A stretch of DNA of 64,000 nt, taken from positions 4,800,001 through 4,864,000 of the forward strand of contig CBDCJV010000002.1 in the NCBI GenBank assembly GCA_965217895.1. The letters are read 5' to 3'. The position numbers and the translations under genes were made by a program. The notes under the pieces are model-generated. The model saw only the letters and a list, made by a program, of their open reading frames with translations, was not told the origin of the DNA and did no database searches. This stretch comes from Waterburya sp. (lineage in GTDB: Bacteria; Cyanobacteriota; Cyanobacteriia; Cyanobacteriales; Xenococcaceae). Shown here in pieces: positions 2,334-55,687 of this stretch (within the stretch, counting starts at the first letter, position 1; each line of letters opens with the position of its first letter).

Positions 2334-3410
2334 GGCTTTGTTGCATGAATAAATAAATAGACAAATCAAACCCGATTGACCAAGCTGGAATTTATGGAGT
2401 AGCAACATAACTCTCAGGTTTACAAATTTGAATCATTCGATTGAGAGCAGCGCATTGTAAAAGCAACTCCCTCGCCTGGTTATCAAATTGGCGAGAGGAC
2501 AACTTACCTCCGAAGATACATTTGAGACGAAACATCGTGGTTTCAGCCAAAGAGCGACGATGATAATCACTCTCTTGTTTCCATTTTTTACGTCCCATAG
2601 TAGCGAATCGCTCTTAAGTTCTCATCTCGTAGCAAGGGTGGAGCTTTACAATTACCATGTTGTTGAATCTTGGCATTTTTACGAGGTGGAATTGCTGCTC
2701 TTGCTTGCCTTTGAGTAATTTGCTCGTAGCAATTGTTAGTGTCGTAAGCTCCATCCCCAGACACTTGTAAAATTTCATCTTCTACACCATCAAGAATGTC
2801 TTTGAAAACTTGAGAGTCATGATAATCATTAGTTGTTACTACTGCACTGATGATCTCGCCTGTCGTTTCATCTATACCTAAATGTAATTTTCGCCATGTT
2901 CTTCTTTTAGAAACACCATGCTGTCTGGTTTTCCACTCTCCCTCGCCGTAAACTTTTACCCCCGTTGAATCTACTACTATGTGACGTGCCGACTCACTTT
3001 TCTTGACTGGTAATTCAATTTCAAGACTGCTCAAACGTCTTGATACTGTACTATGGTCGGGAACAGGCAAATCTAAATTCATTAGTTTGAGTAGAGATTC
3101 GACGAACCCGATTTGGTTGTCTTCCTGCCAAGGAAAAAACGCTTTTGATGGTACTCATGGTCGCAATCGCCGTATCACTATAAGTAGCTGATGCTCCTCT
3201 TCTTCCTGTCTTTTCATTTACAAGCCACTCTTCCACTACATCTGTCGAAAACCAAAGCGTAATACTTCCTCTGAGCTTTAGTCCTGCGTTATACTTTGAC
3301 CAGTTGCGGATGCGGTATTTATTTTTCATTGGGTAGGTTTTGGTTGTGGTTAACTTCAATCTACCATTTTGACGTTTTTATCCTTCGCAAGTTTTTTATG
3401 CAACAACGCC
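2334..3410 (-). mobile_element. IS5-family (IS903 group) insertion sequence, 1077 bp
   Basis: Terminal IRs GGCTTTGTTGCAT (2334) / ATGCAACAACGCC (ends 3410); 9-bp target duplication GTTTGTATT at 2325-2333 and 3411-3419. Confidence 0.93.
2392..3329 (-). pseudogene. IS5/IS903-type DDE transposase split by two frameshifts
   Basis: Three overlapping ORFs carry YRIRNW..YN..L..RG, VDSTG.KVYGEGEW, GDGAYD and YHRRSLAETTMFRLK. Confidence 0.9.
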
Positions 3411-3426
3411 GTTTGTATTTATAACT

Positions 3427-4329
3427 TCATTTGACTCCGCTTGTTAAGCCAAAACCACTTAACACGATCTCAGTTGCTTTTACAAGAACGTCATCGCGCC
3501 ATTTCGCATCTGGTTCTTCCTGCGTGTAATAGATAGCAAGAATGATTGGCTTATGTTCCGACGGCCACAACACAGCTATGTCGTTTGCAGTGCCATAGTC
3601 ACCCGATCCCGTTTTGTCACCAATTTGCCAATTGGCAGGTATGGCAGCACGAATGCGTTTGGCTCCCGTAGTGTTACCCCGTAGCCACTTATTTAATTGC
3701 TGCTGTTGAGATATAGACAATGTATCTCCCAGGGTTAGCACTTGCAAACTGTGTGCCATAGTGGCTGGGGTAGAGGTATCACGAGGATCGCCAGGAACTG
3801 CCGAGTTCAGCTCTGTTTCCCGTCGGTCGAGACGAAATTCACTATCGCCGATTGAACGCGCATAGGCCGTTACCTCAGACGTACCCCCAAGAACTTTGAT
3901 TAGCAGGTTGCCTGCCGTATTGTCACTGTACTGAAGCGCAGCAGCACATAGTTCAGAGACGGTCATACCTTCGCTGATGTGTTTCTCGGTAATGGGCGAG
4001 TAGCTGACGAGATCGCCTGGTTTGTAATAAATTCGCTGTTGTAATAAACCGTCGATTTGAGTGCTTCGCGCCAAAATTGCAGATGCTGCAATTACCTTGA
4101 AGGTACTACACAGAGGAAAACGCTCTTTTGCGCGATGAGCGATCTGAGTATCATTTTCCGTGTTGAGAGCATACACGCCGAGGCGACCACCCGAAGCTTT
4201 TTCGAGCTTCGCGAGATTAGCTTGTGGGGTAACAACTTGTTCGCTTTTTGTAGCCTTCGCAGTGACTATAAGTGCAAGAGGAATAGTTGTCGCAGTCAGC
4301 AAAAATGTTCGGCGATTCATTATATTCAT
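3427..4329 (-). CDS. bla: Class A serine beta-lactamase with twin-arginine signal peptide
   Basis: STFK (SxxK), SDN, omega loop RETELN (E166/N170 equivalents), DKTG; N-terminal MNRRTFLL. Confidence 0.93.
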   Translation of the reverse strand: MNIMNRRTFLLTATTIPLALIVTAKATKSEQVVTPQANLAKLEKASGGRLGVYALNTENDTQIAHRAKERFPLCSTFKVIAASAILARSTQIDGLLQQRIYYKPGDLVSYSPITEKHISEGMTVSELCAAALQYSDNTAGNLLIKVLGGTSEVTAYARSIGDSEFRLDRRETELNSAVPGDPRDTSTPATMAHSLQVLTLGDTLSISQQQQLNKWLRGNTTGAKRIRAAIPANWQIGDKTGSGDYGTANDIAVLWPSEHKPIILAIYYTQEEPDAKWRDDVLVKATEIVLSGFGLTSGVK

Positions 4330-8433: not shown

Positions 8434-9021
8434 CTAATTTACTTTGATATATTCTATTGCTTTGAGCAAGGCATCAAGTATTACTTCAAAACTGTCATCA
8501 GTAGATCGAGGCAAAGTTAGTAATCCAGACTGTTCTAAAGTAATAAAGCCAAAAATTGTCGAATTTACCATTCGCATGATGTCAATCAATTTGGCTTTAC
8601 TTAAGCCTTGAGAATCTAAAAGAGTTTTGAATAAACCCTGAGATTGTTGAATTACCAAAGCTGATTCAGGCTCGTCTGGCTGCAACTGAAACTGCATCAT
8701 TACTTGAAATAGCCCTGGATGCGATCGCGCAAAATCTCGGCTAGCTAATCCCCCAGCCTTCAAACAAGCACGAGGTTCTTTTATATTTGCAGTTTTCTGA
8801 CTTAATTGGGCGAAATAAAGTTTATAAATCGCTAATGCTACTGCTTTTTTTAATTCTGCATTTCCTTGAAGATGTTTATAAATAGCAGGGGGTTTAATAC
8901 CCAATGCCCTAGCTACACGATTGACACCTAAAGCTGATGCTCCTTCTTGTTCGATACAGGCGATCGCTGCTTCAATTATATCTTGTCTAGTTAGAGAATT
9001 TTCTTTGGTTGGACGACCCAT
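8434..9021 (-). CDS. TetR/AcrR-family transcriptional regulator
   Basis: MGRP, HTH VARALGIKPPAIYKH; ATG at 9021 preferred over the ORF start at 9096. Confidence 0.9.
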   Translation of the reverse strand: MGRPTKENSLTRQDIIEAAIACIEQEGASALGVNRVARALGIKPPAIYKHLQGNAELKKAVALAIYKLYFAQLSQKTANIKEPRACLKAGGLASRDFARSHPGLFQVMMQFQLQPDEPESALVIQQSQGLFKTLLDSQGLSKAKLIDIMRMVNSTIFGFITLEQSGLLTLPRSTDDSFEVILDALLKAIEYIKVN

Positions 9022-9115
9022 TTTTTTTATTTTCTTCTCGCTTTGTACTTCTAGATCTTGATAATTCAGGATTAATCGCTCGATCGCTTGGTTCACAAGT
9101 AGCAGATAGCAAGTA

Positions 9116-9171
9116 GCGCAGCCTGGAGGCTGCCGACGTTGCTCCGCAACGGCGAGACGCGAAGCGCGTCT
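9116..9171. repeat. 56-nt three-hairpin mini-element, copy 1
   Basis: GC-GCAGCC-TGGA-GGCTGC-CGAC-GTTGC-TCC-GCAAC-GGCG-AGACGCG-AAG-CGCGTCT, inside a tagcaag heptamer tract. Confidence 0.8.
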
Positions 9172-9199
9172 GCAAGTTCAACCTCTGCCTGAAGTCAGA

Positions 9200-9220
9200 C
9201 AAAGGGCTTGCCCGCATGTA
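9200..9220. repeat. 21-nt small dispersed repeat CAAAGGGCTTGCCCGCATGTA
   Basis: 19/21 match to 53184-53204; related 15-nt core at 16841-16855. Confidence 0.8.
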
Positions 9221-9304
9221 TTCAATTCTTGAATTATTCTTTTATCTTTTCCTCATGAATAAGGAGGCTTTAGACCAACTTCGGAGTTTTCTTAATTGCT
9301 ATCT

Positions 9305-9360
9305 GCGCGAACTGGAGTTCGCCGACTGCACTTTGTGCAGGCGAGCCGCTCCACGCGGCT
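9305..9360. repeat. 56-nt three-hairpin mini-element, copy 2
   Basis: GC-GCGAAC-TGGA-GTTCGC-CGAC-TGCAC-TTT-GTGCA-GGCG-AGCCGC-TCCAC-GCGGCT; same length, first loop and linkers as copy 1, different stems. Confidence 0.8.
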
Positions 9361-9561
9361 TCTACTTGCTACTTTAACTCCGAAGGAGTTGGTAAAAAAA
9401 TATGGCGTTGCTGACTACAGTTATCTGAGAAGTTTAATCAAAACAATCTTCTAATTCATTATGATTGTTATAGCTGTAATTAAATTGATAATTCTAGAAG
9501 AGCGATCGCTTTAATATTAAGCGAAATTTAAGAATTGTAAAGAAGTAACTAAAGTCCATCC

Positions 9562-11382
9562 ATGAGAATTTTACTCGTAGACGACGATGAACAGTTAATG
9601 GAGGTCTTGGCTAACAAATTAGTCGAACAGCGTTATGCTGTCGATATTGCCAGCAATGGTGAAATGGGCTGGGAGTTTCTGCTGCTGTTTGACTTCGATC
9701 TAGTGGTTCTCGACTGGATGTTGCCCGATATTGATGGAGTAGAGCTTTGCCAGCAGATTAGAGCCAAAGGCTATAAAATGCCGATTTTGCTCTTGACTGC
9801 TCGCGATCGCCATAACGATAAAGTAATGGGGTTGGATTCGGGTGCGGATGATTATGTAGTCAAACCCTTCAATTTTGACGAACTTACCGCGAGAATCCGT
9901 GCTTTGTTAAGGCGGGAAATTAGCGTATCTTCACCAGTATTAGAATGGGAAAATTTGACTTTAAATCCCAAAACTCATCAAGTACATTGTCGAGAACAAT
10001 TATTACCTCTGACACCCAAAGAATATGGCATGATCGAACTGTTTATGCGCCATCCTCAACAGGTATTTAGTCCAGGAGCAATTATCAATAACATCTGGGC
10101 GGGTGAAGATCCTCCAGGGGAGGAGGCGGTCAGAACCCATATAAAAGGCCTGCGTCACAAGCTCAAGTCTGCTGGTTTAGATAAAGATACGATCAAGACT
10201 GTGTATGGTGTTGGTTATCGTCTCAAGTCTGAAGAAGATCGACAAAGCAATCTGGTTCAAACTGCTAGCGATAAACAAAAGAGATTAGCAGCAATTACTC
10301 AAACTTGGTTAAAGTTCAAAGATGCAGCATTTGGGCGGTTAGCTGACTTAGAAAACTTTGCTAAAGCATTAGTAGAAGAGCAGGTAAACCCAGAAATACA
10401 CGCTCAAGCCAAAAGTTCTGCTCATAAGCTTGGGGGTTCGTTGGGCTGTTTTGGTTTTCCTGAAGGCTCAAAAATTGCCAAGCAGCTTGAGCAATTGTTA
10501 GATAATGCTTCTATTGAAGCTGCCGATACAAAACAATTTACAGAACTAGTTTCTGCGCTTTATACCGAATTACAACATCAGCCTTTTGAAAAGACAGTTA
10601 GAGATGCTTTGAGTAAAAATATTTCATTACTGATAATCGATCGCGACCTCGATGCTGAGTATAGCCAGAAACTATTTGCCGAAGCTCAACAAAAAGGAAT
10701 GAAAGTCTTTATAGCATCTAATCTGGAGCAAGCAGGAGCAATAACAGAACGAGAATCTATCGATGTGGTGCTGCATAAAATAACATTTCCCGATGGCGAA
10801 GATCTGACATTTCTCGAACAGCTACATCAGCATTTATCCGAGTTGCCTATTGTGGCGATCGCCGAATCGCCACAACTACTAGATCGCTTAGACATTGTTC
10901 GCAAAGGCGTTAACTTAACGTTGCAGTATCCAGTAAAGCCAAATACTGCTATTGATTGTGTTACAGAATTACTTCAAAGTTCGGGGTCTGCTGCCAAAAT
11001 CTTGATTCTCGATGACGATCCACAGGTATTACTCTCATTGAAAATATCCCTTCAGCCTTGGGGTTTTGAACTAACTACTCTTAACGATCCACAGCATTTT
11101 TGGGATGTCTTAGAAGATGTCGAACCAGATCTACTAGTACTAGATATAGAAATGCCAGAAATTAATGGTATTGAACTATGTCAAGTTATTAGAAGCGATC
11201 GCCGTTATCAGCAGTTACCAATTTTATTTTTAAGCGTACATCAAGACGAAAAAACTCAATATCAGGCTTTTGCTACTGGTGCAGATGACTATTTATGTAA
11301 ACCTGTAACTGGATCGATATTAGCTAACCGTATTCTCAATCGATTACGACGCAGTAAACCTCTGACCTCTGACCACATTTAA
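9562..11382 (+). CDS. Multidomain response regulator REC-wHTH-Hpt-REC(degenerate)-REC, RcaC-like
   Basis: LDWMLPD receiver, OmpR wHTH (IKTVYGVGYRL), Hpt AHKLGGSLG.FG, final receiver LDIEMP. Confidence 0.88.
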   Translation: MRILLVDDDEQLMEVLANKLVEQRYAVDIASNGEMGWEFLLLFDFDLVVLDWMLPDIDGVELCQQIRAKGYKMPILLLTARDRHNDKVMGLDSGADDYVVKPFNFDELTARIRALLRREISVSSPVLEWENLTLNPKTHQVHCREQLLPLTPKEYGMIELFMRHPQQVFSPGAIINNIWAGEDPPGEEAVRTHIKGLRHKLKSAGLDKDTIKTVYGVGYRLKSEEDRQSNLVQTASDKQKRLAAITQTWLKFKDAAFGRLADLENFAKALVEEQVNPEIHAQAKSSAHKLGGSLGCFGFPEGSKIAKQLEQLLDNASIEAADTKQFTELVSALYTELQHQPFEKTVRDALSKNISLLIIDRDLDAEYSQKLFAEAQQKGMKVFIASNLEQAGAITERESIDVVLHKITFPDGEDLTFLEQLHQHLSELPIVAIAESPQLLDRLDIVRKGVNLTLQYPVKPNTAIDCVTELLQSSGSAAKILILDDDPQVLLSLKISLQPWGFELTTLNDPQHFWDVLEDVEPDLLVLDIEMPEINGIELCQVIRSDRRYQQLPILFLSVHQDEKTQYQAFATGADDYLCKPVTGSILANRILNRLRRSKPLTSDHI

Positions 11383-12205: not shown

Positions 12206-15200
12206 TTGATGCAAACTGTGTTTTTTCGCTTCATTATCCTGGCAAAAATTTTAAGACTCAGCCAATTATTAATAGTGTGTATCGATAAGTACATTGAACC
12301 TAATCCCGTAACCGTCGCGCCAAACACTTTATTAAAAGCCGCGATCGCTTTGTTTGCTCAACCAGAAATTGACTATATTTTGGTTGAGCAAACAAAATTG
12401 GTTGGAATTTTAACCAAGGGTGATGTATTAAGAGCAATATCAACAGAAATTGAGATAAAGACTACTACTGTGGCTAAGGTAATGACTCAGCCTGTAATTG
12501 CGATCGCAACCTCGCAATGCCAGAATATTCAATCAGTTTGGTCATTACTGCAACAACATTCGATTAAACATCTACCAATTTTGAACAATGAAGGAGAATT
12601 GATTGGAGTTATCGATTATCAGAAGTTAATTCAGTCTTTTCGGCAAACAGAAAAATTGCCAGCCGATACCAGCAATATTAGTCCTCAACTATCTAACCGC
12701 GGAAGGCGGCCAACCGCAAGCCCCGCATCGGAGCGCGTTCCCTTGCGCCTGACGGCGACGCGGGGTCGCTCCTCCTTTGCAAGGCGGGGAACGCTTGACA
12801 AGCTTTCTTATGTAACTGTGGAGGTGGTTGATGAACGGCAAGCTGCACGGCGCGAGGACAAACAAGCAGAAATTCTCCAGCAAGAACGAGATTTTTCTAA
12901 AGCTGTTATTAATACTGTCGGTGCTTTAGTAGCCATATTAGATCGGCAAGGAGTAATAGTTGGTTTTAATCGTACCTGCGAGCAGGTTACTGGATACAGC
13001 TTTGCAGAAGTTAAAGGTAGACCAGTCTGGGATTTTTTGATTCCCCTTGAGGAAAAGACGACGATAAGAGCCGTATTTGAGCGATTGTTGACGGGGCAAG
13101 TTCCCAATCAATATGAAAACTGCTGGATTGCCAAAGATGGCAGTAAAAATCTTATTGCCTGGTCGAATACTGCTTTGTTTGATGCTCAGGGTAATATAGA
13201 ATTTATTGTTGCTACGGGCATTGATGTCACCGAACAGCGAAGAATTTGGAATAAGTTAGAGCTTCAATATCGACAAACCAAACTCCTCACAGAAATTACT
13301 CGCAAAATTCGGATGACCATTGAGCTAGATAAAGTCCTGCAAACTGCCGTGACTGAAGTGCAGAATCTTCTAGCTTGCGATCGCGTTTTGATTATGGAAC
13401 TAAAATCAAACAATACAGCTATACCAATTAGTGAGTCGATCCTGCCCAATCTATCTTCTATGTTGGGTTATGAGCTTGCCGATCCTTTACTGATGGGTGA
13501 ATACATAGTGAGATACCGTCAGGGAAAGGTATTGCAGATTGATAATTTGGATGATGCGCCTATTTCTTTAGATATTAAACAGCTATTAAAACAGTTTCAA
13601 ATACAGGCTAAACTAGTCGTTCCCATTCTTTCTCATGGCGAACTTAAAGGTCTTTTGATTGCCCATCAATGTCATCATCCTCGACAGTGGCAAGACAATG
13701 AAATTCTAATGCTCAATCAGCTAGCCGATCAAATTGGCGTGGCTTTAACTCAGGCTCAATTATTTAATTATTCTGAGGAGCTAGTATTAGAAAGGACTAG
13801 AGAGTTAATCTGTACCAACGAATTATTACAGGCTGAAATTAACGAACGCAAGCAAAGTGAACAAGATTTAAGAGAAAATCAGCAAAAGCTAGCTGGTATT
13901 TTGGATAATGCAGATGAGGCAATTATTTCAATTAATGAAAGACAGCAGATTCAACTATTTAATCAGGGTGCAGAGAAAATTTTTGGCTATCAGGCTGCTG
14001 AAATTATGGGGCGATCTTTAGACTTTCTTCTACCTGAAGTATTTCGCCACGTCCATAGCCAGCAGATCAAACAATTTGCTAAATCTAGCGAACAGTCCCG
14101 TAATATGACAGAGCGGAGCAGTAGTGTATATGGTCGTCGTAAAAATGGGTCAGAATTTCCCGCCGAGGCATCTGTAGCAAAACTTAAAACCAAATCAGGA
14201 ATGCTTTTTACGGTGATACTCAAAGATGTTACCGAAAGTCAACAAGCTAGAGCCAAGCTACAGTCATCGAAAGCTCTCCTTGCCAAAGCCGAACAAATTG
14301 CCAAGATTGGTAGTTGGGAATATGACCATAAAACGAACAAACGAAGCTGGTCAGAAGAATTATTTAATATTTTAGGCTTTGATAAAGACTGTCCTATACC
14401 GTCTTGTCAAGAAATTTTAGCTCGCGTTCATCCAAAGGATCTTTTACTAGTTAAAAATACCCTTCGTGCCGGACATGGACAGGGAAAATCTTGGGAAATT
14501 ACTTATCGACTACTAACCCCCGACGGTAAGGTCAAGTATTTAGAAAGTAGAGGCGAACCAACAGTAGATTCTGAGGGTAAGGTTATTAAAGTATCGGAGA
14601 CAATTATGGATGTTAGCGATCGCATCCAGGCACAAAAATCGCTGCAACGCAGTGAACAACAGTTGAGATTAATTACCGATGCTTTACCTATATTAATCGC
14701 CTACATTGATAATCAACAACGTTACCGCTACAACAATCGTACCTACGAAACCTGGTATGGAAAATCCCGTTCTACTTTACAGGGACGAGCGATCAAAGAA
14801 ATAGTCGGAGAAGACAACTATCAAAAAATGCTGCCCTACGTTGAGATGGCACTGGCAGGAAAAACAGCTACTTTCGAGAACCAACGTATTTCCGAAAAAG
14901 GCAACTCTTACTGGATGAGTGCTACCTATATTCCCGATTTTGACTCAAATGGTGAGGTAAAAGGATTTTTCTCAATGGTGGAAGATATTACCGACCGTAA
15001 GGCAGTAGAACAGATGAAAAGCGAATTTATCTCCATTGCCAGTCACGAAATGCGAACTCCCTTAACTTCGATTCATGGTGTAGTAAAATTACTCTGCGCT
15101 GGTCGCTTGGGAGAACTGTCTGAATCAGGAGCCAAAATGGCAGATATGGCTCTGAGAAATAGCGATCGCTTAAAACGCTTAGTTAACGATATTCTTGACT

Positions 15201-15688
15201 TGGAACGAATGGAGTCGGGCAGAGATAGTATTGAAAAACAAAGGTGTAATAGTGCTGAATTGATCCAGCAGGCAATAGATACCACTCGCTCGATGGCAGT
15301 CGAACAGGGAGTTAGTCTCGAAAGCGATTCTCAATCTGAGGAATTTTTAGGCGATCGCGATCGCTTAGTACAGACCTTAACTAATCTTATTGGCAATGCC
15401 ATTAAGTTCTCAACTGCCGATAGTAAAGTTTCGATCTCTTCTCGATTGGAAAATAACAACGTTCTCTTTGCTGTTAAAGATCGAGGCAGAGGCATTCCCA
15501 CAGACAAGCTAGAAACTATCTTTGAACGCTTTCAACAGGTAGACGCTTCCGATGCTCGAAAAAAAGGAGGCACGGGTTTGGGTTTGGCTATTTGTCGTCA
15601 TATTGTCGAGCAGCATCGGGGAAAAATTTGGGTAGAAAGCGTTTATGGTCAGGGCAGCACCTTTTTCTTTTCTTTACCAAAACAATAA
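12206..15688 (+). CDS. Multi-sensor histidine kinase CBS-CBS-PAS-GAF-PAS-PAS-PAS-HisKA-HATPase
   Basis: CBS pair, PAS/PAC motifs (DVTE, DITDRK), CBCR-type GAF (DRV...LIAHQC..PRQW), H-box ASHEMRTPL, NAIKF, GTGLGL; start uncertain. Confidence 0.9.
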   Translation: MMQTVFFRFIILAKILRLSQLLIVCIDKYIEPNPVTVAPNTLLKAAIALFAQPEIDYILVEQTKLVGILTKGDVLRAISTEIEIKTTTVAKVMTQPVIAIATSQCQNIQSVWSLLQQHSIKHLPILNNEGELIGVIDYQKLIQSFRQTEKLPADTSNISPQLSNRGRRPTASPASERVPLRLTATRGRSSFARRGTLDKLSYVTVEVVDERQAARREDKQAEILQQERDFSKAVINTVGALVAILDRQGVIVGFNRTCEQVTGYSFAEVKGRPVWDFLIPLEEKTTIRAVFERLLTGQVPNQYENCWIAKDGSKNLIAWSNTALFDAQGNIEFIVATGIDVTEQRRIWNKLELQYRQTKLLTEITRKIRMTIELDKVLQTAVTEVQNLLACDRVLIMELKSNNTAIPISESILPNLSSMLGYELADPLLMGEYIVRYRQGKVLQIDNLDDAPISLDIKQLLKQFQIQAKLVVPILSHGELKGLLIAHQCHHPRQWQDNEILMLNQLADQIGVALTQAQLFNYSEELVLERTRELICTNELLQAEINERKQSEQDLRENQQKLAGILDNADEAIISINERQQIQLFNQGAEKIFGYQAAEIMGRSLDFLLPEVFRHVHSQQIKQFAKSSEQSRNMTERSSSVYGRRKNGSEFPAEASVAKLKTKSGMLFTVILKDVTESQQARAKLQSSKALLAKAEQIAKIGSWEYDHKTNKRSWSEELFNILGFDKDCPIPSCQEILARVHPKDLLLVKNTLRAGHGQGKSWEITYRLLTPDGKVKYLESRGEPTVDSEGKVIKVSETIMDVSDRIQAQKSLQRSEQQLRLITDALPILIAYIDNQQRYRYNNRTYETWYGKSRSTLQGRAIKEIVGEDNYQKMLPYVEMALAGKTATFENQRISEKGNSYWMSATYIPDFDSNGEVKGFFSMVEDITDRKAVEQMKSEFISIASHEMRTPLTSIHGVVKLLCAGRLGELSESGAKMADMALRNSDRLKRLVNDILDLERMESGRDSIEKQRCNSAELIQQAIDTTRSMAVEQGVSLESDSQSEEFLGDRDRLVQTLTNLIGNAIKFSTADSKVSISSRLENNNVLFAVKDRGRGIPTDKLETIFERFQQVDASDARKKGGTGLGLAICRHIVEQHRGKIWVESVYGQGSTFFFSLPKQ
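12734..12771 (-). repeat. Mini-element 'A' copy located in frame in the kinase gene
   Basis: Reverse complement matches 15796-15833 at 37/38 nt. Confidence 0.85.
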
Positions 15689-15762: not shown

Positions 15763-15939
15763 TATCAACAGTTAGAGCAGTTAGAGCAGTTAGACGAGCG
15801 ACCCCGCGTCGCCGACAGGCGCAAGGGAACGCGCGAGGAAGCAGTTGAAAACCCCAATTTACCGTTAGCTATCTTAATCTCAAACAAGGGTCAAACACCT
15901 ATTATTTCGTTAACAATAAAATTTTGTCCGAACCATTGA
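15763..15939. repeat. ~150-180-bp dispersed repeat, copy 1, carrying element A (15796-15833)
   Basis: Colinear with 47459-47610 (TATCAACAGTTA...GAAAACCCCAATTTA...ATCTTAATCTCAAACAAGGGTC...TATTTCGTTAACAAT.AAATTTTGT..GAACC). Confidence 0.85.
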
Positions 15940-16450: not shown

Positions 16451-16867
16451 GGTGCGACCCCCTAAAGGGTTCAGCAGTTTGACGGGCGACATAAACGCCT
16501 TTTCGGGCGGTCAACATTCTGGGGAAACCCCACGAGGGCGATTATTCAAGGCGAACTAAATTCGCCGAATCTCGCCCTCAGAATTACGCCCTCAGAAACC
16601 ACAGGCGACGCGCCCTCCTTATGCCAGGAAACCCTTTCGACACTTTGCTCAACGGGTCATAGACCCGCAACGCAAGTGTCTCACCACCGCAACTGCTTCA
16701 CCGCGTCGGCGGTAAGAGGGCAGACCCTGCGCCGCCGTCAGGCGCGTCTTGAAAAAGTTGTTCATGGGGGAAACCCCCAAGACCACACTTTTTCGCAAAG
16801 GAACGCTGCCCTAGCAAGGGAATGCTGACTTAGCAAGAGTAAGGACTTGTCCGCAACTACGCGCACC
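16451..16867. repeat. Nested aggregate of GC-rich hairpin mini-elements
   Basis: Outer stem GGTGCG/CGCACC; inner stems GAGGGCGA/TCGCCCTC, GACACTT/AAGTGTC, AGGGCAG/CTGCCCT, GAAAAAGT/ACTTTTTC; contains interrupted copies of element A. Confidence 0.8.
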
Positions 16868-55588: not shown

Positions 55589-55687
55589 CATGAGGTGCAT
55601 TCCCTTGCGTCTTACGCCGAACGGCACTCACGTGCCATCGCCTGCTTCGCAGGCTCTGAGGCGTTAGCCTCTGTGGGTCAGCTCATG
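55589..55687 (-). repeat. Element A-like copy containing three hairpins
   Basis: Minus strand: CATGAGCTG-ACCC...TTCGGCGTAAGACGCAAGGGAATG-CACCTCATG; internal stems GGCAC/GTGCC, GCCTGC/GCAGGC, GAGGC/GCCTC. Confidence 0.7.

Follow-up and report, generated by a model that had tools for sequence, protein, structure and literature searches.

A three-hairpin, gene-less DNA cassette in Waterburya that usually replaces five target bases

The DNA analysed here, called the window, is a stretch of 64,000 nucleotides from a Waterburya sp. chromosome (C2:4800001-4864000 of the source genome, labelled G000). A TetR-family regulator ORF (8434..9096, minus strand; the true start is likely at about 9020, where orthologue alignments stop) and a divergent multi-domain response regulator with receiver, Trans_reg_C, and Hpt domains (9562..11382, plus strand) flank a 300-bp miniature element of the IS200/IS605 type (9092..9391, minus strand). 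This host element is PATE-like, as follows. It has neither a transposase nor terminal inverted repeats, it carries at its left end a subterminal hairpin of 6 bp with a 3-nt loop (9376..9390, minus strand) that is kept in all copies compared, and its target tetranucleotide is TTAC (9392..9395, minus strand). There are 27 two-ended copies, ranging from 171 to 367 bp. All 27 have TTAC at the left end, TTAC having been part of the search pattern, and in both of the copies for which there are empty sites, the TTAC is retained once and is not duplicated, which is the IS608-type target rule. The host element contains two heptamer tracts. The first (9096..9117, plus strand) is the target of slot 1. 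The second, recognised from sequence and from paralogues, is the target of slot 2 (9295..9374, minus strand) and is split by the second of the two cassettes described next.

A sequence-only reading had singled out two stretches, 9116-9171 and 9305-9360, as 56-nt three-hairpin elements with perfect stems. Both are real, and the layout is as described: a stem of six bases closed by a TGGA loop, CGAC, a stem of five bases around three free bases, GGCG, and a third hairpin, with every stem perfectly paired. Their folds have z-scores of -4.2 (cassette 1) and -5.1 (cassette 2), and none of 200 shuffles folds as well. The limits of the elements, in contrast, need correction. The leading GC (9116-9117 and 9305-9306) varies across the family and belongs to the target, so that the cassette proper is 54 nt; the last two bases of the slot 1 tract are this GC. 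Cassette 1 (9118..9171, plus strand) consists of a left arm of 6 bp with the TGGA loop (9118-9133), a central arm (9134-9154) whose base, CG-A-C..G-G-CG, contains one mismatch and whose loop is 3 nt, and a right arm of 7 bp with a 3-nt loop (9155-9171). Cassette 2 (9307..9360, plus strand) has its left arm at 9307-9322, its central arm at 9323-9343, and its right arm, 6 bp with the 5-nt loop TCCAC, at 9344-9360; all six arms are given on the plus strand. The CGAC and GGCG "linkers" thus are not spacers: they pair with each other around the one mismatch and form the base of the 21-nt central arm. Both cassettes were delimited by sequence, descriptor, and fold, and a covariance model scores them at 60.3 bits on the plus strand and 36.6 on the minus strand (cassette 1) and at 60.8 and 35.8 bits (cassette 2). 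As had been read, the two heptamer tracts are mutually inverted and the two cassettes have the same orientation.

Further copies were readily found by the descriptor and covariance-model searches that the sequence-only reading had called for. The original descriptor matches 33 loci in the source genome (66 rows, each locus being counted twice), and a looser two-arm descriptor matches 36 chromosomal sites and none in each of five shuffles. Clusters of at least three hairpins number 79 on the chromosome and zero in one shuffle. The covariance model, built from 25 variants, gave 94 strand matches when 150 of 1149 candidates were scored, and these strand matches were merged by us into 56 loci. An Rfam scan of the elements returned nothing at gathering score (best E 0.72), so that the family matches none already catalogued there.

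The distribution is narrow. The pattern is present in 9 of 36 genomes of the same genus and in 0 of 24 from other families. A genus search matched 11 of 38 genomes, two of them by unpaired chance matches, leaving nine with copies; the richest genome, G028, has 127 strand matches. Among 250 genomes of the order, paired copies beyond the genus were seen only in one genome (G069), the matches in 16 others being unpaired, and the covariance model found one borderline match across 150 genomes of the class (38 candidates scored per genome). Thirteen of the 31 matches listed in a GTDB scan are cyanobacterial, and the 18 non-cyanobacterial rows were left out as unpaired chance matches; among the matches listed, true copies in named records come under the labels Waterburya, Pleurocapsa, Hyellaceae, or unclassified cyanobacteria. 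Four copies lie on three metagenome stretches, and the viral contigs searched gave 0 matches. On two metagenome contigs, L247 and L249, the cassettes sit in heptamer tracts and the ORFs are phage-like by eye, a possible route for horizontal spread.

Across the family, the three arms abut without any unpaired base between them, and the junction letters are fixed: GC..GC for the left arm, CG..CG for the central arm, and A..T for the right arm. The left arm has a TGGA loop in 62 of 68 variants. The central arm reads CG-A/C-C..G-G/T-CG at its base, with one mismatch near the base, and the right arm has a TCCA or TCCAC loop in 37 of the 68. Since TCCA is TGGA on the opposite strand, each strand often opens with a TGGA hairpin; the covariance model scores both strands, and both fold alike. 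Most cassettes are 53 or 54 nt long, with a range of 49-57 nt in a relaxed scan. Such elements or their remnants account for 42 of the 43 central arms and 69 of the 71 TGGA-loop hairpins in the source genome. A single stand-alone arm as the unit is ruled out for that genome, in which the 21-nt central arm is found alone in at most one of 43 cases. At four sites (C2:2426730, 2547760, 4116270, and 4524090), there are 17-nt remnants in which the left and right arms are fused through the TCCA loop letters that they have in common.

The stems were taken to covary, and they do. Pairing holds in 98.7% of cells for the left and central arms (44 sequences) and in 98.6% for the central and right arms (25 sequences), with nine and ten pairs, respectively, changed on both sides. 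The covariation score exceeds that of 500 of 500 shuffles and of all slid controls, whereas the count of further pair types is not above shuffles. The distinct stems comprise 275 Watson-Crick, 2 G-T, 3 A-C, and 11 other pairs. The arms are modular: two left and two right arms are seen in all four combinations, central arms reassort too, and the central arm occurs in both orientations, in a ratio of 45:23. Between co-directional genes, 18 cassettes are sense and 13 antisense. The scarcity of G-T pairs, the alike folding of both strands, and the flipping and reassorting of arms favour folded DNA over RNA. The sequence-only reading had supposed selection on a single-stranded DNA or RNA fold. The fold is indeed kept, but it makes more sense as something that a selfish mobile element needs than as a function serving the host, and DNA is the better fit. 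Perfect pairing alone is no proof of selection, since template-switch correction also makes hairpins perfect.

Comparison with empty sites, also suggested by that reading, revealed a footprint: the cassette replaces, mostly, five target bases. Of 104 distinct flank pairs, 38 could be matched to an empty site and 66 could not. Outside heptamer tracts (n = 20), the commonest gap is 5 nt at 14 sites, 4 nt at three, 6 nt at two, and 7 nt at one. In heptamer tracts, the gap is 5 or -2, which are the same modulo 7, at 18 of 18 sites. In this context the cassette looks as if it were flanked by a GC repeat, resembling a 2-bp duplication. A two-base target duplication is ruled out by the 5-nt replacement at the non-heptamer sites, and the apparent GC repeat is an artefact of that replacement. 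For cassette 2, the paralogous slot, when empty, has 5 bases in its place; this empty form is also present in sequencing-run contigs (two runs of one sample), and contigs assembled from three sequencing runs contain the known paralogous forms only. An empty hairpin in G028 has five bases at the position where filled copies have the cassette. When the family nests in itself, the inserted cassette replaces the five bases that form the 3′ half of another copy's central stem.

Insertions into coding genes tell the same length. Compared with the homologues shown, the 53-nt cassette produces a net gain of 48 nt in tnpB (10 of 10) and in DUF5895 (6 of 6), and likewise against one IsrB-like homologue; another TnpB gains 16 amino acids from a cassette. 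A 49-nt variant within tnpB adds a net 45 nt, which implies that four bases were lost. The replaced length is thus usually five and is not absolute, and the variation in arm length (49-57 nt in total) weakens a strict ruler model. The target is biased. Of 64 flanks, 63 have a pyrimidine at -1 and 58 have G at +1, for a consensus of (G)Y^NNNNN^G, that is, Y^N5^G. Among 372 column pairs at 48 sites, no cassette base predicts a flank base one-to-one. The filled and empty pairs speak for mobility, although neither an intermediate nor a new insertion came to light; many copies have spread passively and hence are not independent.

The host element is the chief landing place, holding 33 of the 56 cassette loci. 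Neither it nor the five-base replacement figured in the sequence-only reading. Of the 26 chromosomal host copies, 14 have two cassettes, five have one, and seven have none. Slot 2 is empty in one paralogue and contains other variants, in either orientation, in others. The window's two cassettes had been thought to have inserted independently. Comparison of the paralogues shows that they did enter the two slots of an ancestral host element in separate events; the pair, however, came to the present locus together, since a 304-bp host copy at C2:141175, 98.7% identical, carries both. At C2:191882-193355 and in about seven paralogues, a broken element, ISAs1-like by eye, contains a TTAC element that in turn contains three cassettes, and the three levels of nesting have been copied as one.

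Direct coding insertions were seen seven times, five in tnpB, one in an IsrB-like gene, and one in a DUF5895 gene; these are loci chosen by us and filtered by purifying selection, and the TnpB in L280 was called by eye and from its tnpA neighbour. Further landing sites are heptamer tracts, other micro-repeats of 45-70 nt, which are many in the genome, the cassettes themselves, and a site upstream of an IS110 gene. In G028, a lone 17-nt arm lies within a cassette (L280:2796-2866), where another copy has a complete one; the gain is 60 nt net, with the TnpB frame left open. A short stretch of tnpB (L206-L211, from G198, G030, G026, and G013) has been struck by at least three kinds of micro-repeat in different genomes, which makes it either an insertion hot spot or a tolerant loop. 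In the window, a GC-rich micro-repeat array at about 12700-12830 (core 12733-12771) lies in frame in a large sensor kinase ORF (12206-15688), and its core is among the commonest cassette targets elsewhere.

Micro-repeats of other families are found in the window at 15786-15847, 16684-16745, and 55597-55680, the last of which includes a different three-hairpin element (C2:4855623). Unrelated three-hairpin families with GCA..TGC or ACA..TGT ends occur at C2:192352, 819498, 872576, and 4524140, at L146:2574, and at L178:1244; where an empty site exists, their minimal replaced length is 4 nt, and they are also present in genomes that lack the TGGA family. Elsewhere in the window, an ORF at 3427-4329 (minus strand), resembling a class A beta-lactamase in its motifs, adjoins a split IS5-like transposase (2588-3359, minus strand).

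No mobilising enzyme emerged among the candidates tracked, Y1, IS110_2, and PF05635. Y1 transposases are present in 30 of 38 genus genomes irrespective of the cassette, one genome (G020) has cassettes and no Y1 match, and as a tracking enzyme, Y1 fails across 39 genus genomes. PF05635, a four-helix bundle, is present in 39 of 39 genomes and does not track either. IS110_2 is found in 7 of 10 cassette-bearing and 9 of 29 other genomes and is rejected, being absent from G028, the richest genome. The source genome contains eight RT matches, ten tyrosine recombinase matches, one TnpB, IS110 genes, and a single RAYT, which is frameshifted and flanked by its own REP-like repeats. Eight ORFs between repeat islands were inspected by eye for an autonomous gene, and none is obviously a mobility gene; the neighbourhoods of 13 RT, integrase, and TnpB loci held nothing informative. 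A stand-alone RT-like ORF of 528 amino acids (C2:1232462-1234048, minus strand) is unlike group II intron RTs and is possibly a defence-type RT.

Our proposal is that the element is a gene-less cassette of 49-57 nt, likely non-autonomous, that is recognised as folded DNA and inserted in trans by a putative enzyme that removes five target bases; we give it a probability of about 0.6. Fold, footprint, target bias, and hosts are there to be seen; what we infer is an enzyme, an intermediate, and the geometry of the cuts. The trans-acting enzyme would recognise the three-arm DNA, would likely cut the target before and after the five bases, and would join the cassette ends to the target. By a first route, the cut would be staggered by 5 nt, the 5′ ends of the cassette would be joined to the 3′-OH ends of the target, and the overhangs would then be trimmed. 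This route fits the near two-fold symmetry, in which each strand has a TGGA loop on its 5′ arm. By a second, a single strand would be exposed and cut twice. The Y and the G on either side of the site would close a four-way junction, and the bias toward IS605 genes would stem from exposed single-stranded DNA and from tolerance of insertions there. It is tempting to go further and to imagine a class of micro-transposons defined by the shape of a single-strand four-way junction, in which a hitherto undescribed "cut-and-replace" chemistry swaps a modular three-arm cassette, its arms freely exchanged, for five bases, and which parasitises IS200/IS605 single-strand intermediates; this extension is tentative, and we think it possible rather than probable.

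An RNA route would have the cassette transcribed, folded as RNA, and copied by reverse transcriptase, either by target priming, a second nick being made at a distance of 5 nt, or by RNA-templated gene conversion, which a study of the Nostoc SDRs reportedly proposed. RT genes are at hand, in the source genome and in five of five cassette-bearing genomes examined (only cassette-bearing genomes were surveyed), and target-primed retroelements such as R2 are able to remove a set number of bases from the target. A group II intron end is found about 250 nt from one cassette, and two cassettes lie in DNA that is intron-like by eye and has no Rfam match. Nevertheless, the near absence of G-U pairs, the central arm's occurrence either way round, the lack of a clear sense bias, and the equal folding of the strands all argue against a folded transcript, and there was no sign of a poly(A) tail, of 5′ truncation, or of an RT partner gene. 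We regard this route as unlikely.

Insertion of folded DNA by a known type of enzyme, an IS200/IS605 TnpA or a RAYT (Y1 HUH), with the cassette parasitic on IS605 single-strand intermediates, seems to us rather less likely still. The attraction is that Y1 enzymes recognise short hairpins in DNA and leave the target unduplicated, as outlined in PMC3116915, that the cassettes are concentrated in the TTAC element and in tnpB and IsrB genes, and that the SMR-A elements of Haloquadratum are likewise described as targeting PATEs (PMC3119063). One IS605 of G028 even carries two cassettes. These are passengers, however: of the 56 Y1 loci scanned, only one has TGGA-loop cassettes close by, and these lie inside the element. 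None of these 56 loci, a minority of those in the genus, has an autonomous tnpA parent sharing the ends of the host element. Moreover, known Y1 insertion loses no target base and uses a 4-5-nt guide, whereas the 48 sites show no one-to-one base link; the cassette has no GTAG/CGTC tag, and the presence of Y1 does not track with it.

Could the footprint arise with no dedicated enzyme, through host repair and template switching between heptamer tracts or hairpins, with quasi-palindrome correction perfecting the stems? Passive copies do show inverted loops and deletions at microhomologies between the two TCCA loops, and many sites are repeats. But insertions into unique coding DNA that has no homology to the cassette still drop five bases, and the letters at the junctions and the terminal loops are fixed and have a polarity, so that we consider this very unlikely. 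It is hardly credible that the host selected the cassettes as a regulatory structure, RNA or DNA (a terminator, stabiliser, or protein-binding site), for the divergent tetR/response-regulator pair: the cassettes are stably folded and lie between divergent genes, but they are carried by a mobile element, have a patchy distribution in the genus, elsewhere interrupt genes and one another, and overlap no terminator-like site, and the tetR orthologues of four relatives inspected have different upstream DNA without cassettes, which also leaves the present locus without an empty site.

How very small cyanobacterial repeats move has been an open question since 2008. The cassette family offers a sharp, testable footprint, made up of a fold whose free and fixed positions are known, a Y^N5^G target, and a near-constant loss of five bases, and so permits a protein pull-down bait and a plasmid hop assay. 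To our knowledge, DDE, Y1, IS110, and tyrosine-recombinase insertions do not normally leave a five-base loss. The 53-nt form adds 16 codons in frame and can thereby remodel proteins such as TnpB. Annotators should be aware that seeming 2-bp duplications in heptamer tracts can be replacements. Should the tentative micro-transposon reading be true, the enzyme would amount to a new DNA insertion tool guided by structure, and it could account for SDR movement.

No published description of a three-hairpin, target-replacing element was found in the literature searched; Elhai 2008 and its supplements may bear on novelty. Among known systems, the PATEs, as set out in PMC3119063, match the 300-bp host, with no terminal inverted repeats, a subterminal hairpin, a fixed TTAC target, and no duplication. 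The cassette, in contrast to PATEs and IS200/IS605 elements, has no fixed tetranucleotide target or guide pairing, and it removes bases. REP and REPIN elements and their RAYTs, as outlined in PMC3116915 and PMC3733652, resemble the cassette in being short imperfect palindromes that are non-autonomous and form DNA hairpins with a mismatch, in a near two-fold layout. REPINs, however, are described there as doublets with a spacer, whereas the cassette has three abutting arms, stems free in sequence, and a loss of target bases. In place of a GTAG/CGTC tag, upstream flanks vary over 64 flank pairs, GTAG occurring only within one heptamer type, and no cognate RAYT is flanked by cassettes, as judged from the sole RAYT and the 56 Y1 loci. 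The SMR-A/B elements of Haloquadratum walsbyi, in the account of PMC3119063, similarly lack a transposase and a duplication, have a mover that is not known, and prefer PATEs, IS605, and other mobile DNA. They differ in their 80-110 bp, terminal inverted repeats, and high sequence identity, and target loss and three-arm covariation do not figure in that account. MITEs such as Nezha, as presented in PMC3184786, are likewise small, non-autonomous, and cyanobacterial, with mobility shown through filled and empty sites. Unlike DDE-type MITEs, the cassette, with ends GC and T, has no sequence TIRs and no target duplication, and target bases are lost.

The closest likeness is to SDR1-8, which, like the cassette, are very small, gene-less, cyanobacterial, and hairpin-forming, with a mover that is not known. 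The SDRs of the Nostocaceae (Elhai et al. 2008, Genome Res 18:1484) are reportedly 21-27 nt long, show compensatory changes, and are embedded in heptamer tracts, minitransposons, and themselves, as the cassette is. They are given as about 20 bp in PMC2884548, and according to PMC5861425 none was reported beyond the Nostocaceae. SDR5 is described as inserting precisely inside HIP1 (PMC4390886). The source chromosome has 5798 HIP1 sites and, in contrast to SDR5, no listed cassette flank is a split GCGATCGC (HIP1). The cassette further differs in its 49-57 nt, its three reassorting arms, its replacement of about five bases, and its occurrence in one non-Nostocaceae genus and one other genome. It works, then, like a cyanobacterial SDR and is too long to be counted as one, and it is set apart from SDR1-8 by description rather than by consensus sequence.
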